This document shows, piece after piece, positions 1 to 41,100 of a stretch of DNA of 64,000 nucleotides. The stretch is taken from contig CM120644.1 in the NCBI GenBank assembly GCA_051362555.1, forward strand, positions 9,804,954 through 9,868,953. The letters run 5' to 3'. The translations under genes and the position numbers were made by a program. The first letter of the stretch is position 1. The number at the start of each line of letters is the position of its first letter. The notes beneath the pieces are model-generated. The model made no database searches. It was given only the letters and a program-made list of their open reading frames with translations, and was not told the origin of the DNA. Origin of the DNA: Lingula anatina (taxonomy: Eukaryota > Animalia > Brachiopoda).

Positions 1-200
1 TCCGTCGTGCGACTTTTGGAGGACGCAAACAGCACGTAGAAACTTTTCACCAATTACTTTATTTCTTTCCATCGATCTAGCTACGTCCTAGCCAGACGCA
101 AGGAACCTAAAAACCGTGCATCCAAAACGTAGTTGGGACCTAGGCATTAACCGGACACGAAAAATTAAACCTAACAATAAAATGCAGTTGGCCAACTCAC

Positions 201-273
201 CGTCCGATTCAGCGAACAAATCTATAACTAGCATAGTCACCAAGAGCAAAGCGACTAAGGTTTTCTTCTCCAT
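201..273 (-). CDS. Secreted Arg-rich peptide precursor, paralog 1, exon 1 (signal peptide); remaining exons lie left of the window
   Basis: ATG at 273 reads MEKKTLVALLLVTMLVIDLFAESD+G, then a phase-1 donor GTGAGT at 200. Near-identical to exon 1 of the complete copy at 6886-6958. Confidence 0.8.
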
Positions 274-343
274 GTTGCTATAACGTGTCTCTCTCGGCAG
301 TCGTCTGAACAGGTATGTGAAGTTTCATCGATGCGACGGCTCG

Positions 344-381
344 TTATATAAGCACAGCAAAACCCCACCCAGCTTATGTAA
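344..381 (-). promoter_or_regulatory. TATA box (TATATAA, 344-350) and TTATGTAA bZIP-type site (374-381) of peptide paralog 1
   Basis: About 70 bp upstream of the ATG; conserved in paralog 2 (7032-7038, 7062-7069). Confidence 0.5.
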
Positions 382-2395
382 CTTACACTGTACTACGCGT
401 GACAGAACACACTCTCACCTGATATGAGCAAGAGGCCCACGAGCGTCAGCGAGAGGTGTTCATGGCATATATTGGTGCAGGGTGACAGTGTATTACTTGC
501 CCATACATACCAAAGAAGATGGGGTCTTATCTACCCGTAAAACACCCCTAAAACCAAATGAGAAATTCCAGATCGAGAGGTGTTTCATAGAATATACTCG
601 TCTTTGTAGCTGGTCAGCTGTCGCAAAATTCATATTGCCCATGATTTGCTGAGAACTTGTTTTGAAAGGTCAGCGTGCTTGAACAATATTCAGTCCTTTT
701 ATTTTGTCAGTCTGACTCGGTTGTGCTGCACTCTCACAGTTGGAGCCTGGGACAAATTCGTTAGGTGATTGTTTAAAGCCAAAACAGAAAAGAATAATTT
801 TAAGAGTATTTCTGATGAAGAAACAGTTTTGAAATTTGATTCTAATTACAGTTTAAAATTAATATTAATAAGGATTTATATTACTCCTTTTTAAATATGT
901 ATCATATAATGGATGCCTATATAAAATATATATTAAGAATCGTTCACTTAAAATAAACATTGAAATATATACTGAATAAAAATAACCAGTAACGTGTTTG
1001 TAACTCTTTTTAATTTCCTAAGTTCATGAATGCGCACATTTCATCGAAACATATATAAAAGGATGGAATAAAAGTGTTATTATATCTTTTTTTCCGATAT
1101 CAAGATAAAACATAAGCACCTTTCCATTGACATGTGCTTTTGTTAATAGGTAGGTGTTCCAATCTTTGGGTACATGTATGTATTCCCATGAAACATTAAT
1201 ACAGATGTTATAGTGCGTCCAATCCCATGGCGGGCAATACAGTGATGGTGTGTGCTTCATTGTTTGTGAGTTCAGGTAATATTATGCGAAAAGCTATATT
1301 GTGGATGTGTTCTTTAGATTTTTAAATTGTTCCGCGGCAAGTCCAGGTTGTCATAGCCAGCAAGTATACTCCAGTGTAGATCTGAAGAGGGTTTTGCAAA
1401 TTTCTATCAGATTATTTTTCTTCACTCCGACATGTCAGACCATGCACCAGATACACAGTCTTGGTCGCTCTTTGGAAGAAAATATTCTATATGTACACTT
1501 TTTAAGATTAAACTGATATTGACTCCAAGAACTTTCGCATGAGTCACTTTTTCAATAGTGAAATTTTCAGTCTCAATTGTTTTTTTTTTTTCTAAAATAA
1601 TAATCGGTGCTACATTTTTCTTTAGGATTGATCAGCATATTTTTCTTTTTTGTCTATTCATATAGGTACATGTATGAGACTGCTATAGGGAATTTATCTT
1701 CTATAAGAGGGATAGGTTCTTTTGCGTGGCCAAAATAGCAAATAGCTTATCATTTCTGCTCTATAAGCTGCTTATCTAGACATAAGTACAATAAGATTTA
1801 ACACTTGAAGAAAAATACGCCATCTTACCAGAATGCTAAAATGAATAACACACATCCATACCGATAGAATACGGGAAAGCTGGTGATTACACGAGTACGT
1901 TTTGAATAAGAAGAGGCATTAAATTAATTACAAAACTCGTGAACTTGATCTAAGCTTTATTAATCAACAAGAAGAAAAATTATTAAAAGAAGTACAATAA
2001 AGCTGAACACTCAATGTATACATTGTTTGGGATTTAATTGTATATTACTTAGGATAAGATATGGATATATGTGCTTGCGTATCTGGCATTATATTAGAAT
2101 ATTCTTATTATTATCTCGCATTACGTAATAACAAGTTTTTAACAATTTGAGATTTTTCAATGAAATTATTACAGTGATTGAAAGCTTCAAACAAAGTGAA
2201 ATACCTATGTGATCAATTTTGGTCGGTAATACTTTCATTGTTCTTCTTTAATTAATTTTTAATCAGCTATGTTTTAATATCACTTTGAGCAAAAATCATA
2301 AAATACACGCTTGGGACACAGCAGGAAATAGACATAGATTTTAGGCATTTTACTGTCCATATAGTAATCAATCTAACAGGTCAGAACACTTAATC

Positions 2396-3304: not shown

Positions 3305-4900
3305 TTGATGCCGCCAGCGTTCATCAGGGTTGCAAACGTCACTGTTCAAGGTTTACTTTATTGTCCAACGCACAGTATCCTTTTGACTGCGGGTTTTGTG
3401 GATAAATAGATGACATGCAAATGACTAGGTGAATACATGAATAGAATGTCAGGAATAAAGTGCGAAAGAAAATCATGGAAATCGAAAAGACATATGGATA
3501 AAGTTTGTGCTAGCACTAAGGCTGTCCGCCTATTGTACGGCAATGGAGTGCATCGTTAAATGCGAAGCGGAGACTCTGTAAAAAGTGGGGCAAGGCAGCA
3601 ATGTCGCAGCACGAGGGACAGGATTCTGGAAATGAAAAAAATATTAAAGAATCATTGTTATTTCTTTCAGGAACATTCCGGGCCTTCAAAGGCATTATGG
3701 TGAAAGAAAAGATAATACATATATGTATGAATTTAAGTCGATTATGCACAAAATATCCATTCATTTATTCATTGTAAAACTTGTAAAAATGCTAATGCTT
3801 CATAACAACTCTTCGTATGATTTTCATATTTCTCAATTAATTCGTTGTAATAACTCATCAAAAAAATATTAAGCACTAAAATGGCAGTTATCGCAATTGT
3901 TCTGGAATCGGTACTTGTTATCGGATCATGTGACCTCTATAGATGGCCATCATCTGTTATAATCCGTTATGAGATTCAAACGAAAAACCAAACTTATTAA
4001 AAAACCGGGAATAACTTCGAATGTCCAAACGAAATCCATAACTATTGGGAAGTATGGGAAAAGGTTTTTCGTCCCAGGAAAATCTAATTTTTGGCCAAAA
4101 TTAACAGTTGTTTTCCCTAATTATGATTCACCGTTCTTGAAAAAGTTCAATTAAAATTTTCTATGGAAAAAATTTAGAATTTACATTTAAATTGTTGTTC
4201 TTTGTGTAACATAACTGTAAAACTCACTAATTTACAAGTGCAATTTTCACCGTTTTGTATGCAAAACTGACAAAATAAAGAAACTGCACTTCACAAGTAA
4301 CCCAACAATATCGATCGGCGTGGGTTTTATCCGACTGTGCTCAAAACATTAATGATCTATGTGGAATGAATAAAAAACCTATTTGGCATCGAATGATATT
4401 TAATGGATGACATTAAATGTTTTTCATTTTGATCTAGTTTTTTTTTTCAAAAAGACAAAAGAGTAAGGCTATTATACAATAAAAGATCGCATGATTTATT
4501 AGCTCAGTTTTTTAGGTTTGCCCCACCTCAATTCTTTTATGTTTAGAATTATTTTATTTCACGAAAACAAAATTACTTGGAAATATATTGTTTGTTAAGT
4601 TACATAAAGGATTGGCTGAATTCATTAATACCCTTCAATCTTTTTTCCTCTTATAAATCGTTTAAATTTCACGCTCTCACGGTTAAAGACCTAAAGCTTC
4701 AAAACCTGTTAACTTATCTCACGGTATTGTATGGATGGTTCCCAGTGATAATGGTGTTATTGCTGACAATCAAAAGCTTTGATTTGATTAAATGCATGTT
4801 TATTAAATTAATAAACGAAAAACATCCAACAAAAGTAAACTTTAATCGGTTCTTGATTTTTTTTTTTCAAGAAGGCCCTACACCTTCATTGTAGCTCAAT

Positions 4901-4906
4901 TTTATT
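4901..4906 (-). terminator. Probable polyadenylation signal (AATAAA) of peptide paralog 2
   Basis: tttatt on the + strand, about 200 nt downstream of the stop at 5100. Confidence 0.4.
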
Positions 4907-5099
4907 GTCCGTCTTTATAACAGTCATGCATACCAAGTTTATGCCATGATTAAGAACCGTTTGCGTATATCAGGGAACTGAATAATAGGCAACTGGAAGT
5001 CAAATGACCACAGACGAGACAGCAGATGCTAAACGTTTGGTTCTCGTCTGGAGGGCCACGTCTGATTCTCGTGTGATCTTCAGAGTCCAGTTTTGCTTG

Positions 5100-6958
5100 T
5101 TACTCGTGTCCCTCCTCATCGTCAGCATCTTCAACATCATCGTTTGCCAATTGCTCCACCAAGCGGGCCAGCACATATGCCTAAATAAGATACAGAATAT
5201 TAGTTCTTATCTCTCTACCTCTGTAGAAATTAGAAAAAAAACAGAACGACGGAAAATCGTTTAAAAACAACTTGAGAAAAGCTTTGTAATTGAATGGAAA
5301 TTTCACGTTATTCAACATCCTCTTTCACGTCATGGACTCAACTTAATGGCTTATCCAGCGTTATGCGGCACCCTTTGGTTGCCTCCTTCCTGTACCTGCA
5401 CAAAGTTTTGAGCGTTCTGTGGAAGCATTTACCCTGAACTGCTTCTGACAGATGTAAAGAGATCGTGCTATTTTAAATGTTTGTTTATACTGAAGACAGA
5501 GTCTTCAGTAACGTGACAGAGTCCCCCATGATAGAGAGTCCGCTTCCCACTCACTTGTACAGGTAAGCCTCGCCCTCGAGTTAGACCAACTTAGGTCAGG
5601 CTAACCCTAACCATTATAACTAAATAGCCGATTTTCTGTTTACACTGACCCTTAGTTTCGTTACACCGGCACAAAACCTTTTTGGATTCCTTAAAGATAT
5701 TGCTGGTATCGAGAAAATAGTTAATATGATAAAGTCATGTTAACGGGTCTTAGGGTTCAGAATGATACTGACAAAATGGAACTTACTTCCTCACTGGACT
5801 GATCAGCCTCATTTATCAGACTGTTTTCACCTGGAGCTGCTGATGGATCTCTGACAGCTGCACGACGACGACGACGACGACGACTCCAAAATGCTATAAA
5901 ATGATAAAGAGAAAATGTTAAATGTAAGGAAATTTTAAGTAAAGATGCGTGTATAGTTTTCTCCGTGTCCGTGTGTGTATGTGTGTGTGTGGGGGGGGGG
6001 GGGGGTGAGAGAGAGAGAGAGGTGTCAAAGGGTTCATGAATATAGGAAGGACACTTAAGATATAAGATGCAAAAGAATAATGTACTACTATTATATAAAG
6101 AAAACTGCTCCATGTGTCAAGACAACTTACAACTTGCTTTTGAAGTCTGATATAATAATTTGCTAACTCTTAAAACGAGGGTTTAATGGAGTGACATCAA
6201 AAAAGAAGCTGAATAAAAATTTTAAAAAACAATTTACAGTAACCTTAAAAAGCCATTTCTTCAAGCGTTTTTTCGGTAGATCAACACTACGAAGTTTCAT
6301 ATTGCAATTGCCAGTAGAATGCAAATGGTTGTCCAAATTTAATTTACACCAAATTGGTTATTGGCACTTTAAAAGATGTAAAAATACCGCTAGCAAATAA
6401 AGCAGTCAACAACCACAAAAAGAATCCGCGTCTCTTACTTTAACTTTCAAACATTATAATTCAAGAACAAGTAATTTGAAGGAACCTCTCTATTTAGCAT
6501 TAAAAGATACACTGGGCTCACCTGCAGTAGCCAGTATAGTGTTTTGATTGTGATAAAACCGTAAACTATTCGCACAGTTGTTCCTTTTTTAAGCCTAGGT
6601 TCCAACCGAACGTACGGGCTGTTACGTGTGGTCTACTGCCAAACAAAAATGGGGAAAACGTGGGAGTTCGTGCGTGAAGAGCACGTCCGTCGTGCGACTT
6701 TTAGAGGATGCAAACAGAACGTAGAAACTTTTCATCAATAACTTTATTTCTTTCCAGCGATCTAGCCAAGTCCTAGCCAGACGCAAGGAACCTAAAAACC
6801 ATGCGTCCAAAACGTAGTTGGGACCTAGGCATTAACCGGACACGAAAAATAAAACCTAACAATAAAATGCAGTTGGCCAACTCACCGTCCGATTCAGCGA
6901 ACAAATCTAGAACTAGCATAGTCACCAAGAGCAAAGCGACTAAGGTTTTCTTCTCCAT
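5100..6958 (-). CDS. Secreted Arg-rich cationic peptide precursor with acidic C-terminal region (candidate antimicrobial peptide), paralog 2, complete, 86 aa
   Basis: Exons 6958-6886, 5893-5787 and 5180-5100 (73+107+81 = 261 nt), all GT-AG with consistent phases 1 and 0. Protein: MEKKTLVALLLVTMLVLDLFAESDA-FWSRRRRRRRAAVR-DPSAAPGENSLINEADQSSEEAYVLARLVEQLANDDVEDADDEEGHE*. Confidence 0.85.
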
Positions 6959-7031
6959 GTTGCTATAACGTAGTGTCTCTCTCGGCAGTCGTCTGAACAG
7001 GTATGTGAAGTTTCATCGATGCGACGGCTCG

Positions 7032-7069
7032 TTATATAAGCACAGCAAAACCCCACCCAGCTTATGTAA
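7032..7069 (-). promoter_or_regulatory. TATA box and TTATGTAA site of peptide paralog 2
   Basis: TATATAA about 75 bp upstream of the ATG at 6958; conserved between paralogs. Confidence 0.5.
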
Positions 7070-7590
7070 CTTACACTGTACTACGCGTGACAGAACTCAC
7101 TCTCACCTGATATGAGCGAGAGGCCCACTAGCGTCAGTGAGAGGTGTTCATGGCACATATTGGTGCAGGCTGGCAGTGTATTACTTGCCCATACATACCA
7201 AAGAAGATGGGGTCTTATCTACCCGTAAAACACCCCTAAAACCAAATGAGAAATTCCAGATCGAGAGGTGTTTCATAGAATATACTCGTCTTTAAAGCTA
7301 GTCAGCTGTCGCAAAATTCATATTGCCCATGATTTGCTGAGAACAGTCCATTTATTTTGTCAGTCCGACTCGGTTGTGCTGCACTCTCACAGTTGGAGCC
7401 TTGAACAAATTCGTAAGGTGCTTGTTTCAAGCCAAAACAGAAAAAAATAATTTTTAGAGTATTTCTGATGAAGAAACAGTTTTGAAATTTGATTCTAATT
7501 ACAGTTTAAAATTAACATTCATAAGGATTTATATTATCCTTTTTTAACATGTATTATATAATGGATTCCTTTATAAAATGTATATTAAGA

Positions 7591-8081
7591 GCGCATTCTC
7601 AACAAATTAAGCCAGGCTTTACAAAGCCGGTGACCTAAAAATGGCGGACGTACATGAAAGAAAAACCGCCTAATCTTTTAATAGTCTCTCCGCCTCTCAC
7701 GAACATTAATATTTCCGTGAATATCTCTGGTAATATTATCTCCGTAGGTAGTCGATTCATTGCTGCTCTACAGGCCAAATCATTCCTTTTTTCGTCTCTG
7801 TTTTCAAAGATAATAGAACAGAAGAGCTTTTTTCCTTCGATCGCCTTCAGCCGCCATGCTTTCTTCACCACGAGTTTAACTGATGAGCATGCGCACTTAA
7901 TATTTCTCAGGTAGCTTCCGCATGGCGAACGGAGACGCGATTTAATTACTGTACCCCGCAGGGACGACGTGTGGGGAGGCGGAGAGACTATTAAAAGATT
8001 AAGCGGTTTTTCTTTCATGTACGTCCGCCATTTTTAGGTCACCGGCTTTGTAAAGCCTGGCTTAATTCGTTGAGAATGCGC
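7591..8081. mobile_element. Fold-back/MITE element with about 106-bp TIRs (GCGCATTCTCAAC...), flanked by an identical 40-bp direct repeat
   Basis: 7591-7696 is the near-perfect reverse complement of 7976-8081. 7551-7590 equals 8082-8121. The paralogous empty site (899-938) has one copy of the 40-mer and no element. Confidence 0.92.
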
Positions 8082-8756
8082 GTATTATATAATGGATTCC
8101 TTTATAAAATGTATATTAAGAATCGTTCACTTAAAATAAACATTGAAATATATACTGAATAAAAATAGCCAGTAACGTGTTTGTAACTCTTTTTAATTTC
8201 CTAAGATCATGAATGTGCACATTTCATCGAAACATATATAAAAGGATGGAATAAAAGTGTTATTATATCTTTTTTCCGATATCAAGATAAAACATAAGCA
8301 CCTTTCCATTGACATGTGCTTTTGTTAATAGGTGCATGGGTGTTCCAATCTATGGGTACATAATGTATTCCCATGAAACATTTATACAGAAGTTAGTGCG
8401 TCCAATCCCATGGCGGGCAATACAGTGATGGTCTGTGCTTCATTGTTTGTGAGTTCAGGTAATATTATGCGAAAAGCTATATTGTGGATGTGTTCTTTGG
8501 ATTTTTAAATTGTTCCGCGGCTAGTCCAGGTTGTCATAGCCAGCAAGTATACTCCAGCGTAGATCTGAAGAGGGTTTTGCAAATTTCTATAAGATTATTT
8601 TTCTTCACTCCGACATGTCAGACCATGCACCAGATACACAGTCATGGTCGCGCTTTGGAAAGAAATATTCTGTATGTACACTTTTTAAGATTAAACTGAT
8701 ATGGACTCCAAGAACTTTGGCATGAGTCACTTTTTCAATAGTGAAATTTTCAGTCC

Positions 8757-8788
<32 letters not shown>

Positions 8789-10323
8789 GTCTAAAATAAT
8801 AATCGGTGCTACATTTTTCTTTAGGAATGATCAGCATATTTTTCTGTTTTGTCTATTCTTATAGGTACATGCATAGGGAATTTATCTTCTTTAAGAGGGA
8901 TAGGTTCTTTTACGTGGCCAAAATAGCAAATAGCTTATCATTTCTGTTATATTAGCTGCTTATCTAGATATAAGTACAATAAGATTTAACACTTGAAGCA
9001 AAAAATGCCATCTTACCAGAATGCTAAAATAAATAACACACATCCGCCTGGCGTTAAGTACCGGTAGAATACGGGAAAACTGGTAATTACACGAGTACGT
9101 TTAAAATAAGAAAAGGCATTAAATTAATGACAAAACTCGTGAGGTTGATCTAAGCTTTATTAATCAACAAGAAGAAAAATTATTAAAAGAAGTACAATAA
9201 AGCTGAACACTCAATGTATAGATTGTTTGGGATTTAATTGTATATTACTTAGGATAAGATATGGATATACGTGCTTGCGTATCTGGCATTATATTACAAT
9301 ATTCTTATGATCATCACGCATTACATAATGACAAGTTTTTAAACAGTTTGAGATTTTTCAATCAAATTATTACAGTGATTGAATGCTTCATACAAAGTGA
9401 AATACCTATGTGATCAATTTTGGTCGGTAATGCTCTCATTGTTCTTCTTTAATTAATTTTTAATCAGCTATGTTTTAATATCACTTTGAGCAAAAATCAT
9501 AAAATGAACGCTTGGGACACAGCAGGCAATAGACATAGATTTCAGAGATTTTTACTGTCCATACTGTAATCAGTCCAATAGTTGAGAACACTTACAGTAG
9601 TAATAAAAATTAGGTTTCCGTTGTACGACGTTTTAAAAACGTCAGAAAGGTTTTAATCCCTATACTATGAATAGAAGGGGGCGGACAAACAATGGAGAGC
9701 CGTCTAATCCCTTCAAAATTCGAACGCCAAAACACAATAGCTTAGACGTAATAACACACAATACCTTAGGCGAGTGAACCCCATGACGCCTGTTTCTGTG
9801 GTCCAGCGCGAGCACGACAATCCGCTGTGACTAGGTGTAATTAACAGCAGGATACATCAGTCAGTAAGTGCCCATTGTTTGTTGCGGCGATAGGATTATA
9901 CTCCAGTGGCCACCTATCCTTTTGTTCACTAGCTTGGCACACGCAGCTGATCATGTTTTAAGTGTTGCAAGAAAACTGCTAGTTTAATTTAGTATCAGTT
10001 TTTTAATTCAACATGAAGTGTTCTGTGGTCAAAAATTGAATTTGATAGACATGCATCAGCATCGTACATCAGCATGATCAACAAATCATCCCGTCTCAAA
10101 AAGTTTAAAGATGCTCCGTACACAAATTTCCATCATCGCTACCTGTGTAAAAATACATTACTGTTTAGAGATAACAAAGAAAGAAACATTATTAAAACAA
10201 TTTATTCACATTACAAGCTGGCGTGTTGCCTCAATTACTACATTAAGTTACATTTTATATAAAATAATAGAGCGAATCCGTAAAAGGATAATAATAGAAA
10301 GTCTTAATAAATAAATATATAAA

Positions 10324-13236: not shown

Positions 13237-13448
13237 AGCCTCCTTTACACTGGACGGCGTCCTTTCTGCGTCCAGCAGTACGACTCCATTTGAAAGTTAA
13301 AAAATTATAATACTTTACGTGCCGACAACTGGCCGGTCGATAAGGATTCATTCTGATACAAAATCAATGCCCGTGCCTCCTTATTAAGACCACAACGATT
13401 CCAAATTTCATGGTCGCAGAAAGGACGCCGCCCAGTGTAAAGGGGGTA
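13237..13448. mobile_element. PIF/Harbinger-like MITE
   Basis: TIR ...CCTTTACACTGGACGGCGTCCTTTCTGCG / CGCAGAAAGGACGCCGCCCAGTGTAAAGG...; TGA on both flanks (3-bp TNA TSD). Confidence 0.75.
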
Positions 13449-15214
13449 TGAGCGTTAAAGCGTAGGTTTATTCATCATGATCTATTTTGTAAACAATACT
13501 TGCCTAGATTTTACTTGGATTGATCATTGTCACTGTTTGGCTACTCGCCTATAATGCGTGCTGAATGACAGACAACTTATAAATATTATCTGTGTTACTG
13601 TGTTTATGACCACGTTAAGTTAAAATAGAACGGTATCGGTGATTTAATCCATCCAACATATTTATATTTCTTCTTTTAAGTCCAGTGTTAGGTTAACATC
13701 AAGTTAAAGCAAGCCTTGCAGATTGATTTTGTTTAAATTTTCGTAAATTAAGTAAAGCTAAGTAAAGCCTGTTTCTACATGTAGTTCATCCACACTATAA
13801 AACTGCATGAAGGATAACAAGTCTCTGAAGCCAATTAACTTTCACAATGCCCTGTGTTTTAGAGTCCCATGTTATACTGTACAATAAAATGAGTATGGCC
13901 TGAGAGAAATATAAATATGAAGCCGTGTATGAAGATGTTTCAAATAATAAAAATCAAGAATTTATACATGTTAGGTACATGCACATCACTTGATAAGTCA
14001 TTTCACAAAAATGGCATCTAATTTTTCAGATAAACCCCCACTTTTATCGATCTCAACGCCTTGTCTGATGTTTACATGTAGGCGTATACTCCAATATTTA
14101 TTGCGAACAATATCAATAGCGACTCGAGATCGTTGCCTGTTTTTCACACTTTTACACAAACTCATGAAGGGTTAATAAAAGGATTCGCGTTGCGACATCT
14201 ATCTCTTTCTTTCGAACAAGAAAATTAAGGGCTGACCCGAAGTAAGCTTTCATAACTAATTTCTCTTTGACTGTACAGGGGTATATTGTAATTACTCCAC
14301 TTGGTCGCCTCCATTGTCTTGTAACATTGACAAAGAATGTGTTTTCACACGCTAGTTTACATAACTCCTTTGCCTTGTGTCTTTATCAAGGTTATAATCA
14401 GTTTGAATAGGTTGTCTTGCCTCACTTAAAAAGGGAGTTGTTCTTCACACTGGTTGTTGCCTACATTTGTGTAACTTATGCTAACCTACTTTGTATAAAT
14501 ATGGTTTTAATAAGTCGCCAAAACTATGACACTAGTGAACATTGTGTATCAAACATTTTGATACGATTAAATAAATGTGCAAGAAGGATTACGGAATGAG
14601 TTACTATTTACCTCTCCCCACGCGCCCTTCAAAAAATGCTTTTTTGATTTCGAAATGAATTTGTTTTTAACGCAAAGAAGTCCAATACCCCTTTCACGAC
14701 TCAGTCATTGTACAGCATGTTATATTACTCTTTACCCTTTTTATATGACACTGTCTCTGTTTCTCTCCCCTTTTACTTTCTCTTGTTAGAAAGAGGGCAA
14801 ATAATTAAGCATTCAAAATATGCATCACCAATCTTCAGAAAAGAATGAGTGAATGAACCATTGGGCTGGCCCACAACGTCCGACACAGCAGAATAAATTA
14901 AATAACAGCTTTCACAGATTTAACTGCAGTTAGCTGTACAGCGTCACTATATACATAATCTGCTGCACGCGCGAAGCTGTTGAACAAAAGGGTAGTTCTC
15001 TAGGGAAGACCTTTTGTTTACATAAGTACTCTAAGGGGGCGTGACTAACCAGGCGACAAGAGGATTAGGCTAGTCACTATATTCCGTCAAATTCGTTTAG
15101 CGACCCTATCATTATCACACTCCCTCTATTGTATTTTCTGACGTTATAATTGTATCTAATCTTCTTATGGTAGATGGAAAAAATGCACACATATATAATC
15201 TTATGACTGTAATT

Positions 15215-15850
15215 AAGCCCTTAAGAATAATCCACTTGGCGGCCAATTTCGAAAAAGTTTCTAACAACTCCATGGATGATGCGTTGAAAATTGAAAAAAA
15301 ATTACCTTTAAACGTTTTTCATTGCTAACATGTTTCAAGACTTTTCATAGGATAAAATTTGGATGTTCAGCATTGAAAAATGAATTAAGGTATTTTTTTC
15401 AATTAGTCGTGCGTTAGAGCATATTCTTCGCTCGGTTTACTAGCCGATGTATGGTGCGCAATCCCCGAGATCGTAGATCCCCTTTTCGCATGCTGACACG
15501 CTTCTCAATATCTCAGCCGGTCTGAAAACTGGGTCAAATCCTTGGATGATCCTTCTCAACTTGCCCTGAAATATTTAACTTCCTCGTTAATATATTCGAT
15601 TTATTACTAAGGAGTGAAAGAGACTTCGGTTTATTACTAAGGAGTGAAAGAGATATCCCAATAGTACTAGCATTATATATTAGATGTAACAGTCTTTTAG
15701 ATGTGGCAAGGTGTTAGGTAAGATAGGCATAGCATTGTCTAAAATATAACAGTGTGTTAGGTGTGACGGTGTGTTTGGTGTAATATTGTATAAGGTGTCA
15801 CGCTGTGTTAGGTGTGAGAGTGTGTTAGGTATAACATTGTGTTCGATGTG
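15215..15850. repeat. Dispersed repeat, copy 2, ending in a degenerate gtgtgttaggtgtga minisatellite
   Basis: Matches 2396-2920; carries an internal ~29-bp tandem duplication (tttattactaaggagtgaaagaga x2, 15600-15655). Confidence 0.85.
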
Positions 15851-15859
15851 AAATGGTAT

Positions 15860-18800
15860 TTATAACTTCACCTGCATACAGGGATGCTTCATGACTGGTT
15901 CAACAATTTCATGACATTTTCGTGAGCAGTGTCTCCCATTCCTTACGTCACAGACCTTCTCAAACTCCGCATTCTTCTTTACTTTGTCAAGCACACCATA
16001 GTACTTAGCCAGTCGACAGTCTCCGTATTCTAAATGTAAATTAGTTTACTTCTTAGCTACGACTGTCAATCGCAAAATACCCTTTATATTATAAACATTG
16101 AAACGAAATAGAAATGAAACGAAAAATAAACTTCTCAATGCAAAAACTCAGACTAAATTGTCGAATGAAAAAAAATGGAATAGAACATCCAACCCCAGGC
16201 TAGATAAATTAGCTACGCCAAAAGCTTAAAAAGAAATCAATCACCCTATGACCCGGGGTGGATTCATTGATAAAGTTGTAAATATGGCAAATGTGGTGAC
16301 ATTATAAATACGACTCTTCTAAACAAATGTAAAGAACCAATGACTTCAAAGTTTTTGCTATCTGTTTTAACAGATTTTAATCTTTTTCATAAGTTAAAAA
16401 AAGCGCATCACTGTGGAAACATGGAGGTAATAGTAAAGGATAATGAAAAACATTTACCTTGACCCCCACAACTGTCATAATTGTCTAACTGAATGCAGTC
16501 TGGGTTAAAAGGCTGACGTGGATAGTAGGTAAAGATAGCAAAACACATTTCATCCTGAAATGTACAGCAACCAGATGTTTAATAATACGTAAAACCGACT
16601 GAAAATGTTCTAATATTGTCTTAAAAGATGCCACTTTCACGGCATAAAATGCGCGTTAAGTATTTATGTGGCGGGATGGACATCCCTGCTTGGGCCTCAG
16701 TCAATGAATTTCTGGATGCATTTGCTTTGAGATATTAGCGTGGCGTAGCATGCCCTTCAGCTGGCAGTTAGGTGACTGAGGCCCAAGCAGGGATGTCCAT
16801 CCCGCCACTGCCGCCATTGTAATGAGAGTGGCAGATTTCGACCCGTTTTCCCTACCTGCGTTCCCAGCCCAAAATAGGTTGTGTTGGCATGTCTCTGCTT
16901 TTTACCACGCTTTGAGGTAAATGTACAATATGTGCGGAACTCATCACCTGCAGCAAATGATAATTCGTTTTGTTACTTCTTTCTTTATTTTTTAACTACT
17001 TGCTGCCGTATGGAACAAGGTATGCTATAAGTTTGCATGTTTTTTAAATTGCATGCAATATTTTAATCATTGCTTACTGATCGGAGGACCGTCGCAGTTA
17101 AAAAAAAGATACCTACAAGGCAAAACCGTTTTTACCGTACGTAGCTTTTTTTAAATTAAAAAACTCACCTTTTTTAAATACGATGGGAGGGTCAAAGGTG
17201 TGCAGATTCGGCGTCTCGTAGGTATAGTATGGATCATCTGATACAACTCTCAGTAGTTTGCCATCTCTCCATTGCTCTAATTTCCCTGCTATACCTGGAA
17301 AACATTAAAATAGAGCACATCTTTGGTATATGCCTGTCTCTAAAATTGTTATTAAAATGCAGTTTCAAATTTTGGATTTTGTCTCTTTTTGGCATGAAAG
17401 ATTATATTTCACTTCAACTCTTTTCAGCAATGCCTTTTATTGGCAATGTCTCTGAAATTCCAACGAAATTATTTTGTTGGTCGAATGTTTGACTTTATAC
17501 AGTGCTTGTATCTTTATGAATTTGAAATAAAGAGCTAAACCCGTTTACATAGACTGAAAACTTCTGTAATCTAGCAAGTTCAGTGCAAAAGAAACAGTCA
17601 TGACTTGGAAGACAATTACACAACACCCATGAAGTCCGTCACTGCAAACATTGGAAAGTTGGATCATTTTTTCTATGTTCACTGGAATGTGCTTTTTTGT
17701 TAAAACTTATAATGAGAACGTAATTTCCTGTAAGTGTCTGTACATATGCAGCTTTGCTGTCTACTTAGTTCTGCGCATTCCAATAAATCACAGTGTTGTT
17801 TTAGCTCCACTGTACCTTGATAATGCATGTGCATAAGAACTGAGGTCACATTGATGTCCTGATTAAACTTCTCCTCGGTACACTTGGACTGGCACACCCC
17901 GGACATGGTCAAACTGTCCACTCCTGGGGGAATCTCCAGGGCAAACTGACCAAATGTGCCCGTCCCCTCGGAGAATGGACGCAGGCGGTCAGTGTAGAAC
18001 ATGCGTATTCCGGAGTTGTCTGGAAATTTGGTTGAATTTTCAATATCTATATTATGCAGGATTCGACCTTGATGCTGTGATACATATGCATTTGTAAAAG
18101 TCTAAAATTTCTATGTTTAAGCCCGACAAGGATTTTTGGTTCAGAATAAAAAAATCCTGTCGACTTCACTTGGTGAGTCAGAAAATTTCATTTAAAAAAT
18201 CTGTGTTCGTTCCTTTTGGCCGATCATTGACAGTGTGTCATAATAATAATAATAATGATAATAATAATAATAATTATTATTATTATTATTATTATTATTA
18301 TTTGTATAAATGTGATATTTCTGGGAATACAACCTACCTGTATAATCTGCTCTCAGCTCTGGGTTGTTCCAGTGTATTTCCACAGCCAGATATTCATACG
18401 AGCCTTTTCCGAATGGAACCCCTGTATTCTTTGAAAGACAATATCCCTCCATCCCAGTGGACCAAACTGTTATTGTTTGACGGCACTCGGGTAACATGTT
18501 ACATAGATGGGGGCCCTGGTATTTTCAAAACGATACGGTCTTGAATAATAAAATGACTTTACATCTAAAGTAATAAATAAAAAATAGACGTAACCCGGTA
18601 AACACATTTACTGTACGTATTTGTATTTGTCAGCGTAACCCCTATGGCATGCATACACATATTAATTGTGTTTCACAAAATCTTTTTCATAATATTAACA
18701 AAACAAACATAAATATAAAACTAGTCTTCTGGTACTTCCTGTAAAAACATGTTATGATGATAAACACTTGGTGGGTAATACATTTAAGTAAAAGAAAAAT

Positions 18801-20873
18801 CACTGGATAAATTACCTTTCTAAGTGGCGTTCTCGAGCACCCATAAACGACCATGTGGTGAAGAACCATGTTGTTGCCTATGATGGGTTCAAAAGCGACA
18901 GCGTGGTACTCCTTGTCAGTTGGAACCTGCAATGGAACAGCGATATGCTAATGTGTGATCCGAATATGAACATGAGCGTATGGTTTAAATTATTTTTTCA
19001 TTGTGATGGGTGAATCCTGTTTTGGCTGTATGTATCGAGTCAGCTCACTTCGCGTCTTGCATTTTCTAGTATGTGCTCCTTCCTCTCTTCCTCCAAATTT
19101 ATTTTGTTTTCATAGTTTATTGTTTTTCGGACTAAAGCTGTATGATTACCTTGAAAACATTACATATGTAAGTTGTTTCCTCTGCTGGCACCGAGGTTTC
19201 TGGGAACCTGAGGTCAAAGGTCTTCACGTGCGACTCCTTGGTGGCGGTGCAGTTGTATTCTCCCTGGCATTCGTAAGTGAAATTCTGAACACGACGACAA
19301 TGTGCCGAGTCCACCGGTTCACAAATACCTGAAGAGACAAGTTAGCTTATAAAGCCATATTGGATAAAATTTTGAACATTAAAGTATTAGTATTCATTAT
19401 TCATTCATAATTCCGATTTGTTGCAAATAAACATTTTTTACCTGGATGTGTAATATTTTCGGTCCTTAGAACGGCCGAAACCGAGTTTTCTTGCCAGGCA
19501 CAGTTAGGGTCTCCAAGTTCTTCACCGTTTGTCTTCCCGTCCTGATCAGAGTCCTTCCTACACAGTTCAGAGGTCCACTGGTAATTAGCGGCCTTAAAGT
19601 CCTGAAGAAGAGCACCAATTCTACTAATCAACTATAAAGAAGTATATTATTCGGATTGAAACCATTCCGGAAGGCAGTGCGAGAAATGACCTTGAAGAGA
19701 CCGGGAAAAGAACATCGTTTAAGTGAACGACTTACTAATTTCTCAAGACTATTTCATTTATGGTGACTGTCAGAAAAGTAGGATCATTGGCTGCTTAGAA
19801 GGAGAAATGTAATGTTTAGATCTACTGCTTGGAAATGCCTTAAGAATGAGTCAGTCAAGGGAAAATCTTACATTGGGCACATTTTAAGCTCTGTCGCGCG
19901 ACCACCTTGACCTATTCGCTTTCAAGTTCTGAGGTGACTGGTTCACGTTAATATTAAAATGTATTACATCTCATTAATAGCATAGGATATAGAAACAAGT
20001 ATAACTGTACATATAAAAAACAGTATGTAAAACAGAAAGGCGTTATTTAGCAGATCAGTGTGTTGGTTGAATTGTTCAATGGAGATGTCTTTGGCTCAGT
20101 AATTTGACAGACTACCAGATAAACATGTACCAGACTCTAAGATAAGTAGGAAGTTAGATATATGGGCAATTAATAAATGATAAAATGAATAAAAAATATG
20201 AAAAGAGTTGGCCCTACAAGTATAACTAGTAACCATGGTGCAAGGGGATAAACATGTATATGGAAACGGTAGATTGGCCGACGATGTTTTCAAACAGGCG
20301 TCTGTGACAAGATTTGTTATTAAGGTCTAAGATAAGATAAATTTTGGTAAACAATGAAGACCCAAAAGTCGTATTTGCTACCATGTAATACAGATAAATA
20401 ACTGAATAAATAATAAATACATTAATGAATTAATAGAAAAAAATTGATACCATAGCGCCAAAATAAAATACATAAACGAGTAAATCCATAAAACAAACCT
20501 TTAGAAACAAACAGATGGATATTTAGAAAAAAATTATTGAAGAGATTGATCTATGAACAAAAGAATGTATTAATCAAAATTCACAGACGGATGTCACTGA
20601 CTGTGCCGTGAACCTTAAATGTAGCCGGCCAACCAACACTTCTTTGGTGAAATTAAGCAAATACAAACCCAGCCAACCTACCAGTCCAAACTGGTTATTG
20701 GGCTGTCCGCCTGCCAGCTTGACGTGTCCCAATGCCAGCCATTTGGTGTTCTCCTTGCATGGGTGGGGGACGTTCTGGCCGTTAGGAAGCCTATTACCAA
20801 AGTATGGGTAAGCACTAGAAACGGTTATGATCGCTGCGAAAACACAAACCAAAAGTGCCACGCGATTCGACAT
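15860..20873 (-). CDS. Secreted temptin-domain / DBH-like (MOXD1/tyramine beta-hydroxylase-like) copper type II ascorbate-dependent monooxygenase
   Basis: Exons 20873-20682, 19601-19442, 19328-19150, 18926-18816, 18515-18338, 18019-17816, 17294-17169, 16947-16856, 16554-16458 and 16029-15872 (or read-through to TAA at 15860), all GT-AG with matching phases. Signal peptide; temptin motifs (LPNGQNVPHPC, LGH, NQFGLDF, LCRKDSDQDGKTNGEELGDPNCAW, THPGICEP); copper ligands in LHHMVVYGC, EIHWNNP, MHMHYQG and DEMC. The 3' end is uncertain. Confidence 0.92.
16668..16808. mobile_element. Small intronic palindromic element with perfect 36-bp inverted repeats
   Basis: GTGGCGGGATGGACATCCCTGCTTGGGCCTCAGTCA (16668-16703) and its reverse complement (16773-16808); no clear TSD. 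Confidence 0.7.
18241..18302. repeat. (TAA)n followed by (TTA)n microsatellite (self-complementary)
   Basis: Directly visible; intronic. Confidence 0.9.
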
Positions 20874-21721
20874 TTTGGTGACTGCTCTGGCCCGGTAGTT
20901 GAAGCGTTGATAAACGGCAGGAAGATATGGCAGATGCTGCTGCGATGAGACCAGCCGTCCTCAAATTCTGCAAATATATGAAATAAAGTGAATAGTCAGG
21001 TTAAGCCACTCAGATGGAGCAAGGCTTTACCACTTCTTGTGAACTGATGCCCTGTTCGCGCTTCTTCCCGGGTTGTCAGTCCTTTAATCCTAACGGACGC
21101 GCCAACCCTTTTTAACCCCGTCTGCTATCACATGGTTAAACACACGTTTCCTGACTAAGATTTATTTTAAGTCCTGGTATCAAAACAGGTGATCAAATCT
21201 TGGTGATCGTCACTCTTATCGACTTCCAACAGCAGATCTTGCAGTGACTCAATCCCTTCTACACCAAGTGACCTGCCGGAGTTGACATGCTGAAGGCACG
21301 TGTACTTCACCATGTCAGAAACGGTGTCGTTATTTGATTTTCTGGTGGATTGATTTGGATTTGTTTCAGTAACGGGGCACGTTACTTTTTGGTCTCTTTG
21401 CAGTTGTATACCTTTGGCGTTGTGAAACCTGGATGACTCTCAGTTGAATCAGGTAAATGTACTGAGTAAATTTCTGAAGAAACATACTGATGACATTTGT
21501 TAAATACAAAATGGCCACCAACAACCAAAGAAATAACAATTTCCTCTTAAATGGCTTAAAAGGTTGAGTTATTTCACTTTCCAACATAGTTATGCATGTA
21601 ACCGTGACATGTCATTACCTATAATGCCATGGGGCTTAACTTTGGGTGCTGTACATGTCAACACTGAAGTTTTATGCAGCAGTTGAAACTAAAGACGGTT
21701 TCACAATATGTTCGCCAAGTC

Positions 21722-30686: not shown

Positions 30687-30792
30687 ATGAAAACTCTCCT
30701 GGTAGTTTTATTTTCCATTGTATGTCTAGCCAGCAATGGTAAGTACATGTTTCTTTATTCTCTGTCTCTTTCTTTGCGTTTTAAACTATTTC

Positions 30793-30866
<74 letters not shown>

Positions 30867-33800
30867 TCATCAATCAATCCCTCCTCTATACGATGTTTAT
30901 TGCTAATCAAACGGTCACTGAACGAAGTGAATATATTTTTTTACCGTTTTTTTAAATGGTTCTTAAAAAGGTAGCATTTTAGCTTGTGTTAAATCTTTGA
31001 CAGTTTTATGGCTTTTATTGTAGATAACAAGTTAACTTGTTTCTTACGTTTTACACGGTAGAAGGACAAACTTTGAATTGACCTTTCTCACGACAGAAAA
31101 CCTCGACCTTGAAATAATAATACAGTTTGTGCACCTTTCCCTTATTTCGGCTATGACACCTTGCAAAACACCATTTAGCATGTAAATAAAGAAGACGTGT
31201 GCCATTGCTGATTTTTATGTAGCATTAAAAGTTTTTAATAAGGCGTTTGTTGACCTTGAGGTCATTAGTTTTACCTCCTCAAGAGACTTGATGTCCAATA
31301 ACGTGCGTTAGCCAGACGTCTGTAAAAGATAAAGGGGTATTGACGTCGGGGCACTGCTATTATCTCTGCAGCAGTTTGCATTTTAGGAGTTTAATCTAAT
31401 AATATCCACCGCACGTGCATGTGTTGACTCTCCAAGTCAATATTGACTGATGAAGTATGATAATTTTTCAGCGCTGTCAACGCCATGGACATTTATAAGA
31501 AACGAACAATGAATAAGCTAGGGTAAAAGAGTACATTATCCTTCCATTTAGGACCATAATGGCTTACATCATTCATTCATTCATTCATTCATTCATCTAT
31601 TTGCCATCTTAAAACAGTTCTGGAGACAATTACATTTAATAATTTGTATGTATTTTAGTGCAGGGACGAAGAATAAAGCGAGAGATTCCAAAATACTCAC
31701 TGGCTGACAAAAAAGCTATTGTAGACGCACATAATAACAAAAGAAGAAGTGTCGTGCCCCCCGCCACAAACATGAAATCTATGGTGAGTAAAACGGATCT
31801 CAACATCTTTCAAACAAAAAGAGAATTCTGTAGTGCGTATGTCAATGAACATAACATTTATATTAACCATGGTGCGTATAATTCAATTCTATTGCCTTAA
31901 AACTTAGGACAACCAAAAGCACTTTACAACTTTTTTTCTTAACAGAAATGCTTGGAGGGACATTAGTGTGTTAGTTGTGACGATGACGATTGCGATTGCT
32001 TAATTTCCAGGTGTGGGACGACGAACTAGAGAGCGTGGCTCAGAACTGGGCCGACCAGTGCGATTACAAACACGGCCACAACATCCCACAGAACTCCGAG
32101 TTCCAAAGAACGAAGCCCGGGCAGAATCTGTTCGCGACAACCCGACGACCAGTCGATCCTACGAGGTCGCTTTACTATTGGGTGGACGAGGAGATCCCGT
32201 TTTATACCTACGCCAATAATAGCTGTGTACCCGGAGAGAAATGTGGGCATTATACACAGGTAATTGTCACAACACAATGGAAAACTTTTTCTCAACTACC
32301 GCATTTGGAAAGCTTTAATTTATATAAGCAGTAATAAGTTGCAGGTGCATTGAGGGTTGTCACATTTTGCAAGACGCCCCGTATTGCATTTCCAAATTAA
32401 CAACTAAAACCAGACGTCATAATGGCGTTTATTATATATTGCTTTGTCTCTGTCGATAATTTACCAGCAGGAATACAACACTTAAAACATTTAAAGGTTA
32501 AAATCTTTAAAATATTTAAATTCGTATAATTGATTTTTTTGTTTGTTCTTATTATAGGCCGTCTGGGCAGATAGTCACCGCGTGGGTTGCGCAGTCGCAG
32601 AGTGTGCCGTAAAATCTCCATTCCTTGGCTACCGCGGCGTATGGTACTACGTCGTCTGCAACTATTACCCACCGTAAGTCGAATTGTTGAGTGAAAGAAA
32701 AAATGAATTTTAAAAGCAAGTGCACAAAAAAGTAAACAATAAATAATAATTAGAAAGATGTTCAAATGATAAATCAATTACAGGTGGATGAATACAAAAA
32801 AGACAAATGCACGGATAGACACATGAACGATTGGCTTAATAATGAAGGTTTAGCAAACAATTAAATAGTGTGGCATATAAATGTCTTTTACACAGGGTCT
32901 TAGTACCAAGTTATCATAGAACTATTTAATGGCATTTAGAAGAAGAGTCTAATCTTCTACTTTCGTGTCTGATTCACTTAACAATTTTGGCGTCTGACGC
33001 ACTTATTAAGTACACGGCAATAATCACTTCCTTTCGTGTATCTTTGAAGACTTCATCGATTTCTCACTTCATCTACCTTAAGTTTGTCGACATTCGCATC
33101 AGTGATATTGGATTTACCATTAGATGCCATTTGAATCCGTTCCTAAAATCCACCAACATTGAATAATTCAACAGTATGCTGACGTACGTTTGTGAATACG
33201 CTGTAAATGTAAAAAATAATGGCATTGCTGTTAGGCTTCAATTCTACAGTTTGCAACTAGAGTCTTATCGCATCATTGAGAGTCGAAGATGTTTTCTTGC
33301 AGAGGGAGTTTTCTCAAGGTTTTACATCCCCCAATTTTTGCCCGTTTTGCTAAAAGTACTCCTTGAAAACGTCTGAGTCCCATCTTCGTTTCAACGCTTC
33401 ACATGTAATTGTCAATGTAAAGTTCTGTCCGAGTGAGACATGGAGATTAGGCCCCCTACTGAATTAAAAAAATATTGCATATTTCAATATGGTATATTTT
33501 ACATTACAGAGGCAACTACATTGGTCAGAAGCCATACAGAGCGGGAGCCACCTGCTCGGAGTGTGCTACAGACGACTCACAGAACACTGGAGAGTGCGCA
33601 GCTGGACTGTGCCGTAAGTCACGTGATACCCAGCATTCACACTATTGTTTGTTTGAAGTGCACGTGTTGTGTTGAGCCATCGCTTTTTTAACATTCATTT
33701 CCATTTGCTACGAGTTACTTTATGTTCATTAAACGTTATAATTGCACTACATACACTTACTTCCATAATGCACTCCAATTGTACTTTTTATTTATTCCAA

Positions 33801-38163: not shown

Positions 38164-41100
38164 TTAACCAGAGTTGAGAGGAGTGCCTGTCTTCTGCTTC
38201 TGTTCTGTCAAAGCTCTGGATGCATGGACCAGCACAGCAAATGTGACGCCCTGTTGAAATAAATGTGTACCAATATTAAATTACACACAACATATAATGG
38301 TATTGTATCTATCCAATTTTGTTTGAAAAACCAAAACAAAAACAAATGCTGAAGGTGCTCAGCTCTACTAGTATAATGTGGGATTTGCGGTGCATAAATA
38401 CAAAACCCAAATATTCAGATTTCTAGATAATTCCAGGACTTTCATCTCTACAACAAATAAGATCAGAGTAAACCACACATGTACCACCTGTTACCTGAAG
38501 TAGGGAATACATAAAGGAGTTTTGTTACAACTTGAGTATAAGGCTTCGTTCACATGAAAAATCTATTTTCTAAACATCTATTTTCTATTCGTGGTATCTT
38601 GTAATCACGGTCTGTGCCCTGAATACCCCACTGGGTAATTACTGGCAGCGCAAGCCAGTTACTTCCAAAGCTGTAATTAATTCTCAGCTGCGCTTGGAGT
38701 GATCACAAGATACCACGAATAGAAAATAGATTTTTAGAAAATAGATTTTTCATGTGAACGGAGTCTAACTGACCTGGTTATCAGCTGCTCTGATAAAACC
38801 CATGTTAGCAGATAACGTCAGCGCACGCAGTGTCTCCCCAGAACCAAATATCACCTGAAAAACAGAATGAGGAGGATATTTTATTTAAAAGATTCACAAG
38901 ATTCCTTTCATAACCAGAGAAAAATGACAGCTGTCTTGGTACAGTTTTGACCAATGCTGAGAGGTCTTGATCACACTGGATGACCTTGCATGTGTAAGGT
39001 CAGATGAGTACGGAGTTGTTATGAATCCACAACTGAATGGGAGCTACATGTGGCTGTTGTTCATTTCACTAAATCACATTATTTAGGATTATTCAAGATA
39101 AATCATCTGTCTATTCAATATTCAACAACATCCCCTCCTCTCCCCTTCCCCATCCATCACCTCCTTAAATTCTGAATCAACCGATAATATGCCATATATC
39201 AATAATATGGCTTTCTTTAATATTGCCTATATTTAAATGAGGCACAACCTTTCCCCTCTCTCTCTCCTTATTTTATCTAGAGATATGGCATACTCCAGGA
39301 AAATCCTATTTTTGGCCAAAACGAAGAGTTATTATGACTTTTTAAAATATTTAAATGAGACACAACATGTCTTTCCCTTTCCCCCTCCTATATATCTAGA
39401 GATATGTCTATTACCTTAGCCCTTTCTTTAATACTGCCCGTACACTTCATTAACACAACATGAGATGGAGGACAGTCGGGGACAACATGGATGTGACCCA
39501 ACAGCTGCTCTGCTCTCCTGGTCTCCGCGGGGCCTCCAAGCAAACTGACTATGCTCTGGAAATCCTTCACTGCTGACTGACAAGCATATAGGGATTTGCC
39601 TGAAAACACAAGTAAAAAAAAGGTTTTAAGCAAGGTGGTACATTATTGATAAACTGGTTCCAAATACAGTGAGGAGAAAATTTGTTCATAGTAGCTGTAC
39701 CTTTGATAAAATTTTGTCTGTTGGTGGAAAAAACATTTTATGCTCAACCTGTGTGTAACATAAGAAGTCATGCAATATTTATGAGTGTGTGAAACTTAAG
39801 CATGATTTTTACTACAGGTAAACAGCTCAATTTTTCACCTAATCACTGTTGCATTATCTATAAATTATCCCCCCACCCATTTTCTTTTTTTTTAATGTCC
39901 AAGTAAACTACCAGCTTCTGCAGCATTTGGCTAATATATCGGCTAGGCTCATACACATCTGCAGTAGTTCCATATCTAACATAAACAGAAAATGTGTAAC
40001 ACTTGCCAACCTTGCACCCCTTGGATAATTTTGAAAATGCATGCCACCTACCAAATATAAACTGATAAATCTGAGGTAAAGCTGGTGCTTGCCTCTCCTC
40101 TTCAGCCTGGGCAGTCAGTACAGCTTCCTTGAAGACCCACCCGCTGCCACCATGGGTCAGAGCTGATATCAGGGCAATCATAGCCGTCACATCCAGGTTG
40201 ACTCTCCTGATGGTGTCGGTGGATTGAGATGACCAATGCTTTAGTTGTGACACAATATCTGATTGCGTTAGGTGAGACACTGAATTGTGTTCATATTCCC
40301 TTGTAGACTGGCTGGTATCACAGTCTGTTTTAACACAATGTGTTGGCTGTGATTGCGATAGGTGGGATTCTGCATTGTGAGCACAATCATGACCAGTGGA
40401 TAATGATGCTTTATCTACTTGTGAAGAGAAAACCAATTGTTTCTCAAAGAAATCTTTGCACACTATACAGGTACAGTCAAACAGAGGACTGTTCACAAAT
40501 CCCTTGCAATTCTGGCAAGCTAAGCATCCTTCTATACATGGCATTACACTGGTAGAAGAACTGGATGTGTTAGTTGTGCCCAGTGTGCATTCTGATTGCA
40601 GTAATGTTTCAGGTGTGACAGGGAGCATACACCATAGATCTTCCTCTACAGTAATATGAACTCTTTCATACTGATTACTTTCACTTCCACTATCCAAAAT
40701 TTTATCTTCAAAGTGGCTTTGCATTAGGTGGCCATCAATTGTGGTTTTGGCACTGTGCTTGCTGAGACAAGAGGACATTCCTATGGTACCCACATCCCTT
40801 TGGGTGTGACACAAGACCATTGCATCAGTTGAGACATTGTGCTGGGAGTGACTGAGGGCCCCTATAGCCTCATCCTCTGATTCCTCTATATCCCCATACT
40901 GATCAGCTGGCACCACCTCTCCCTGTACCTCCACTCCAAGTACTGAGATCAACTCGTGTGCTATTCTGTCAGTCACTCCACCATGGAACACAAACAGAAC
41001 CCTGGGTGGTGTATAGTTCACTGGGTTTTGTTCTGCATAGTATATATAGTCCGCTGCTTGGTCCACAATGTTCCTGTCTCCAAACTGACCATCTCCTGGA

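Follow-up and report, generated by a model that had tools for sequence, protein, structure and literature searches.

In the ascidian Ciona, linear antimicrobial peptides (AMPs) are made from precursors in which a signal is followed by a cationic part and then by an anionic helix (PMC7387483). Two active ones, KH.C1.640 and KH.C7.94, both start with aromatic-Ser-Arg-Arg-Arg, and 6.25 µM or less of either suffices against E. coli and S. aureus: the former has an MIC of <3.125 µM on both, is LPS-induced and is active at 500 mM NaCl, and the latter has an MIC of 6.25 µM and a hydrophobicity of −0.033. In the styelins and clavanins of Styela clava an anionic C-terminal propiece is cut off N-terminal to D or DD without a basic site (PMC7387483); their peptides, 23–32-residue His/Phe-rich or cecropin-like helices with no poly-Arg run, have C-terminal amidation (PMC10608444). 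Closer in phylogeny to the animal considered here, as fellow lophotrochozoans, mussels have the myticalins and modiocalins, which are Cys-free, have a signal, a variable cationic part and an anionic tail, and belong to multigene, strongly tissue-restricted families (PMC5577615, PMC12294457). Myticalins are Pro/Arg-rich, 23–42 residues long and followed by a Lys-Arg site before the tail, and their signal, mature part and cleavage site share one exon, with a phase-1 intron within the tail (PMC5577615). What can a run of arginines contribute? In natural AMPs poly-Arg motifs are usually 3–5 long and act with a helix, and a helix that is inert by itself becomes an AMP once Arg5 is appended to it (PMC12371492). 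In tilapia piscidin 4 such a tail is the membrane-binding element, though a 20-residue amphipathic helix is needed before it, and in the statistics of that study Arg clusters in the first third had no advantage over Lys (PMC12371492).

The gene considered here is on the minus strand of a stretch of 64,000 nucleotides from the brachiopod Lingula anatina, which was analysed whole and is called the window below. It belongs to a Lingula family that is real, strongly and selectively expressed, and whose precursors are small, predicted to be secreted, and carry 7–10 Arg behind an aromatic cap that varies. Its three exons, 261 nt in frame, give 86 codons and a stop. Following the direction of transcription, a TATA-like box, TATATAA (7032..7038), lies 41–47 nt before the position at which 5′ read ends are most frequent, and in the three expressing RNA runs, X1, X2 and X3, many 5′ molecule ends are at 6991. 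The 5′ untranslated part of exon 1 (6959..6991) is read-covered and the first ATG is at 6958. The coding part of exon 1 (6886..6958; 73 nt, 24 codons plus 1 nt), which ends at a donor used by reads, specifies the predicted signal peptide. Intron 1 (5894..6885; 992 nt, GT..AG, phase 1) begins GTGAGT and ends TTTATAG. Exon 2 (5787..5893; 107 nt), covered by stranded reads in X1–X3, encodes a Phe-Trp-Ser aromatic cap, the Arg run, a short Ala/Val linker and the first half of the acidic tail; within it a perfect (CGT)7 microsatellite (5862..5882) specifies seven Arg. After intron 2 (5181..5786; 606 nt, GT..AG, phase 0, GTAAGT to TATTTAG), which is spanned by junction reads, the coding part of exon 3 (5100..5180; 81 nt) supplies a predicted amphipathic anionic helix, an Asp/Glu-rich end and the stop codon. 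The 3′ untranslated region (4875..5099) has AATAAA at 4906–4901 and its main 3′ end at 4875–4877, 24–26 nt beyond. Both introns also contain repeats (~6528–6871 and ~5496–5667) covered by reads from other transcripts, even in runs without expression of the poly-Arg gene.

The preliminary description, which had been made from the letters alone, joined these three exons, never joined by the open reading frame track, into a precursor of 86 amino acids. That joining stands, as splicing is GT..AG and in frame, and reads connect 5787 to 5180 exactly, with 587, 503 and 629 (+10) first-mate-plus junction reads in X1, X2 and X3. The other junction it proposed, 6886 to 5893, fared less simply: reads leave exon 1 precisely at the 6886 donor and continue at either of two other exon-2 starts, and none of the junctions listed is identical to that of the window copy. 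Is the structure more than an accident of a long stretch of DNA? A scan of both strands of the whole window for an ATG, a hydrophobic stretch and a phase-1 donor gave five matches, namely this gene, its copy, a temptin-monooxygenase gene, a CAP gene and one further exon. The (CGT)7 run is one of only three perfect trinucleotide runs of at least six units in the 64 kb and the only one containing CpG. The fewness of these matches, the rarity of the CGT run and the exactness of the read junctions together make it more than chance. That the run is a chance intronic microsatellite was rejected, as spliced reads cross it and do so in the frame that gives Arg.

The product of exon 1 has a basic N-end, a hydrophobic core and small residues at −3/−1, and from hydropathy and the −3/−1 rule it is predicted to be a signal peptide. 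Judged by that rule the signal could be cut after Ala25, with a cut after Ser23 as the alternative. Residues 26–39 contain 8 Arg, seven of them consecutive and one at 39, there is no Cys in the precursor, and the last 47 residues, 55% of the whole, contain 16 Asp/Glu and have a net charge of −15, with an amphipathic stretch at about residues 58–74. The counts given in the preliminary description (8 Arg in 14 residues, no Cys, 16 Asp/Glu in 47) were thus reproduced, and its signal-like first segment and its order of signal, cationic and anionic parts were borne out by the precursor sequence. The border between cationic part and tail reads Ala-Ala-Val/Leu-Arg/Gly and then Asp.

Charge is arranged in clean blocks, +7/+8 and then −15, with no dibasic site to separate them, and this would suit a chain left uncut after signal removal, a two-block polyampholyte in mucus, adhesive or shell matrix whose Arg binds phosphate or sulfated polysaccharide and whose acidic residues bind calcium. 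The two-block cement proteins of tube worms provide an analogy, and the high and restricted expression set out below fits a gland product. However, such a chain would have only 61 residues, no Cys and no Tyr-rich or Ser-rich repeats, its variable cap would go unexplained, and it is outside the shell protein types described in the available text of the Lingula genome report, with its motif absent from the one supplement file concerned (PMC4595640). We consider it quite unlikely.

The reading preferred here, an antimicrobial prepropeptide, draws on the Ciona precursors (Ci-MAM, Ci-PAP, KH.C1.640, KH.C7.94 and KH.C5.577; PMC7387483). In common with these, the Lingula precursor is Cys-free, within 50–100 residues, has the order signal, cationic, anionic and lacks a basic processing site where the cationic part meets the tail; several of the Ciona ones also start with aromatic-Ser and an Arg run. 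It differs in being from another phylum and having no sequence match in the searches run, in an Arg run of 7–10 rather than 3–5, and in a cationic part of just 13–17 residues with no amphipathic helix and with a hydrophobicity below the Ciona window. The Ciona criteria are, for an 18-residue cationic window, a hydrophobicity (H) of 0 to 0.6, a moment of 0.1–1.0 and a charge of +3 to +10, and for the anionic helix an H of −0.7 to 0.4, a moment of 0–0.5 and a charge of −10 to −3 (PMC7387483). With 86 residues, no Cys and a signal by hydropathy and the −3/−1 rule, the Lingula precursor is of the Ciona size class. With window values recomputed on the Fauchère–Pliska scale, its first cationic window has H −0.112, moment 0.257 and charge +7, and no window with a charge of at least +3 reaches H 0. 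A standard amphipathic-helix AMP by these criteria was therefore rejected, hydrophobicity being too low, and the range of −0.10 to −0.31 for the cationic part, under that of Ciona, counts against a defence role, as does the single aromatic residue in one of the two expressed forms. The anionic side is otherwise: of the 32 windows that begin between residues 38 and 69, 31 are within the Ciona limits, the exception being at 56 with a charge of −2.

The likeness to mussel myticalins that had been put forward did not survive comparison. The tail, 47 residues with a net charge of −15, is indeed an anionic C-terminal extension within the 35–75 residues of myticalins. However, the Lingula border has no Lys-Arg site, the 13–17 residues before the tail have no Pro, and the introns are placed otherwise, one of phase 1 splitting signal from mature part and one of phase 0 in the tail; myticalin identity was rejected on these grounds (PMC5577615, PMC12294457). 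With the styelins and clavanins there is in common an anionic C-terminal propiece, there cut before Asp (PMC7387483), and their amidation parallels the form with Gly39 considered below (PMC10608444). Consecutive Arg, as in tilapia piscidin 4 (PMC12371492), would be the shared membrane-binding element. The architecture is of a known kind, and what is new is the nearly pure oligo-arginine cargo. That the Lingula precursor works like the Arg-rich ascidian ones, by convergence, would be the simpler reading.

Nine RNA runs carry the species label and of these X1–X5, X7 and X8 were examined, X6 and X9 being left out; mapping took in 6–26% of each of the seven. In X1–X3, which come as three samples from a single study, reads are on the three exons and on one strand only, consistent with minus-strand RNA, and a rough estimate gives 165–194 exonic reads per million, or ~320–370 RPKM. 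In X4, X7 and X8, mapped at 95% likeness only, depth on the exons is zero, and in X5, mapped at 80% likeness, it does not exceed a trace (0.58 in one bin). The pattern is strongly on/off, with three of the seven runs on and four with essentially none. It could be sex- or stage-linked, as might be expected were this the precursor of a neuropeptide, a pheromone or a gamete-associated product unrelated to defence, for which the smallness of the secreted precursor, its basic residues and the possible amide-donor Gly in one form also speak. The layout does fit non-immune secreted peptides too. Nevertheless there are no repeated peptide units between dibasic sites, and neither a fast-changing mature N-terminus nor tandem duplication is usual for neuropeptides, so that a role of this sort seems very improbable. 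As to regulation, kB-like sites are not enriched, with 76 in the window and 69 ± 11 in shuffles; two one-mismatch kB-like sites in the 300 bp upstream of the gene (P ~0.04) were given no evidential weight.

Which genes are being transcribed? Practically all reads differ from the window at several coding sites, such as position 5150 (786/786, 706/706 and 860/860 in X1, X2 and X3), at 5844 (486/486, 396/397 and 386/386) and at 6910 (365/365, 315/317 and 333/333), and so the transcripts are sibling forms and not exactly the window copy. One form has Phe-Thr-Thr and 10 Arg (180, 170 and 178 junction reads in the same order) and another Phe-Gly-Trp-Ser and 7 Arg (120, 98 and 88), run lengths which assume no hidden deletion further in; a 9-Arg form is represented by four reads in X3 only. 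The two main forms keep the signal exon, the frame and the acidic tail. The window copy is intact, and may be silent or an allele that these animals lack. Intermediate allele shares, of 8–55%, suggest more than two transcript forms. Among the coding differences listed for X1 there are 13, eight replacement and five silent, with no stop; the replacements listed include Leu17Ile, Glu22Asp, Val38Leu, Arg39Gly, Gly46Ser, Asp74Gly and His85Asp/Glu. Coding length changes, among those listed, are +3, +6 or +9 nt and only at the mature N-terminus, and those listed for the untranslated regions are −1, −3, −4, +7 and one longer insertion. Variation lies mainly in the cap and in how many CGT repeats there are, and the acidic part keeps its length and charge across read variants. 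Exon 1 does not differ significantly from intron 1 in divergence between the genomic copies (p = 0.19), and with this and the 8:5 ratio of replacement to silent changes, the keeping of frame is the only demonstrated sign of selection on the protein.

It had been supposed that the peptide would end at the Arg of Ala-Ala-Val-Arg, but this end does not hold generally, as codon 39 reads Gly in 104 of 188 X1 reads. Codon 40 (Asp) has no change among the X1 differences listed while residue 39 is Arg or Gly, and for this reason a cut before Asp40, rather than at Arg39 as a general rule, is favoured; Gly39 could then be an amide donor. Nevertheless, R-X-R-R is the cleavage site by the furin rule, and a run of 7–10 Arg amounts to several furin-type sites, with R-X-R-R occurring several times within it. 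Furin-type enzymes could cut the run, which could then be trimmed away in the secretory pathway. The Arg run would on that account, which the preliminary description had itself raised as the alternative, be a multibasic convertase site, and the product the acidic part of ~50 residues with its amphipathic helix, serving for instance in ion-binding mucus, shell or signalling; that part is more than half of the precursor, is constant in length and charge in the read variants, and is from an animal whose shell is calcium phosphate (PMC4595640). However, a cleavage site needs 2–4 basic residues and not 7–10, and a throw-away spacer would have no need of Phe, with which all three variable caps begin. 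In addition, the shell proteome, in the available part of the report, is without secreted acidic proteins, which mildly disfavours the shell versions, though that proteome could have missed a small, unannotated, Arg-rich peptide (PMC4595640). The idea of an acidic product is the strongest of the competing ones, though an unlikely one in our judgement, but if true it would mean a new acidic secreted peptide in a calcium-phosphate-shelled animal from which such proteins were reported absent.

The family status suggested in the preliminary description is upheld by a second copy in the window and by transcripts of two or more forms that vary at the N-terminus. Exon 1 of the tandem second copy (201..273, minus strand) is identical in 72 of 73 nt, with Leu17 changed to Ile, and its TATATAA box is identical; it is 6.7 kb from the poly-Arg gene, and its exons 2 and 3 would fall beyond the left edge of the window. 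The duplicated block (1..2392), comprising promoter, exon 1, the start of intron 1 and upstream DNA, matches 6686–9594 at ~92%. This left copy carries the letter of the reads at 6910 and a 5′ untranslated region shorter by 3 nt, and on that account one transcript form more probably comes from it, or from an allele of it, as judged from unphased reads. It could be an uncollapsed haplotype, though the ~8% divergence of the blocks is well above the species heterozygosity of 1.6% (PMC4595640). For the family as such, assembly artefact alone was rejected, as all three samples contain two transcript forms. Upstream of the right copy only is a MITE-like element (7581–8091; 116-nt arms, 95% complementary), and here the duplicated blocks change their offset from ~6685 to ~7183. 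Elsewhere another stretch is duplicated (2391–2920 and 15210–15762; 86% over 560 nt), with a 17-bp minisatellite (15749–15851) at its end, and inverted repeats at 16668–16808 and 13239–13446 have 36-nt arms which are 100% and 92% complementary.

Other genes of the window offer no evident partner for the poly-Arg gene. Exons at 17700–20960 (minus strand) specify a temptin domain, carrying a signal peptide, and a copper type II monooxygenase, as in a DBH-like secreted enzyme (Pfam PF24784, PF01082 and PF03712). A secreted CAP-family gene (PF00188) with its own signal exon is at 30687–32334 (plus strand), and a gene for a fibronectin-III membrane protein is also present. An exon of a C7orf25 homologue (39960–41198, minus strand) specifies 332 of 350 residues identical to a Lingula anatina protein with one 13-residue gap, which places the window in this species or one very near to it; these 13 residues are absent from RefSeq isoform X1, reflecting a small intron or an allele difference. 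At 55227–55287 (minus strand) a GC-rich 9/18-bp tandem repeat has frames reading as Pro/Ala or Gly/Ser/Cys repeats, and at 56461 on the same strand begins a signal-like exon that has a phase-1 donor; together they are possibly another small unannotated secreted gene. An Arg/Ser-looking frame of that repeat was rejected as a family member, being tandem repeat with no signal in that frame.

Relatives were sought exon by exon and not with the whole spliced protein. In a collection of 5.8 billion proteins none of 74 candidates of 65–209 residues matched the exon-2 region at E ≤ 10, and none of 85 of 78–2000 residues matched exon 1 read into the intron. Exon 2 had no match at E ≤ 0.001 among 1.84 billion representatives. 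Pfam and NCBIfam gave no family for any of the three exons, queried separately and hence with low power; the best E for the poly-Arg exons among PDB sequences was 1.7, the ESM Atlas gave no usable match, and JGI metagenomes gave none either by protein or by a 30-nt exon-1 pattern. When copies were altered at random, the exon-2 query recovered all 40 of 40 in the representative search at 20% change and 24 of 40 at 30%, and the exon-1 query only 17 of 40 at 20%, so that relatives within ~20–30% of exon 2 are excluded and distant ones are mostly beyond the power of the search. The earlier statement that the sequence is of no named family thus agrees with all searches run. As the large collection includes the NCBI and EukProt Lingula proteins, the family is likely to be unannotated in both sets. 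In the full-text literature searched there was neither an occurrence of the motif W-S-R5 nor a description of a poly-arginine precursor, and of Arg-run strings in the invertebrate literature the only relevant match was the Ciona paper (PMC7387483). Titles and the starts of abstracts on Lingula or brachiopod antimicrobials name no such peptide, the parts available of Lingula genome papers and supplement files (including PMC4595640) do not mention the family, and brachiopods go unmentioned in the accessible portions of reviews within that literature. The family is apparently undescribed, as judged from a literature that did not extend to the one survey devoted to immunity in Lingula (Gerdol et al. 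2018, PMID 29278680).

What, then, might the precursor do? The window gene is one member of a small Lingula family with tandem duplicates, and its predicted secreted precursor would probably yield a very short, aromatic-capped oligo-arginine defence peptide. In our opinion it is somewhat more likely than not that this is an antimicrobial prepropeptide which acts in the way of the Arg-rich Ciona peptides and is cut before the first Asp. This reading is favoured by traits of AMP genes, namely a tandem copy, a near-identical signal exon, length changes at the mature N-terminus and on/off expression, as well as by a layout and an anionic tail like those of Ciona linear AMP precursors. Minus-strand transcription, splicing and polyadenylation were seen with the sibling forms. 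Export would be by the signal peptide, with Phe26 the predicted new N-terminus. By analogy, the Arg run, net +7 to +10, would be held in check inside the secretory cell by pairing with the tail and its net −15. A cut before Asp40 would then release a peptide of 13–17 residues, amidated where residue 39 is Gly. Finally, from the Arg-rich Ciona peptides and the poly-Arg tail experiments we infer that the Arg run may bind anionic microbial surfaces and that the aromatic cap may act as an anchor or aid entry.

Brachiopod effector peptides are close to unstudied. A more far-reaching and distinctly tentative proposal is that brachiopods have natural oligo-arginine effectors, with an aromatic cap and 7–10 Arg, shielded by a tail, escaping convertases and tuned in length by CGT slippage. 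Peptides of 13–17 residues are cheap to make, and the three natural forms, varying in cap and run length, are a ready comparison. The synthetic R8 and R9 carriers are not gene products, and, if the proposal is true, the Lingula peptides would be a gene-encoded counterpart of these cell-penetrating peptides and the first linear defence-peptide family of the phylum. It would also mean that animals use oligo-arginine itself as an effector, with a means of keeping it from convertases.
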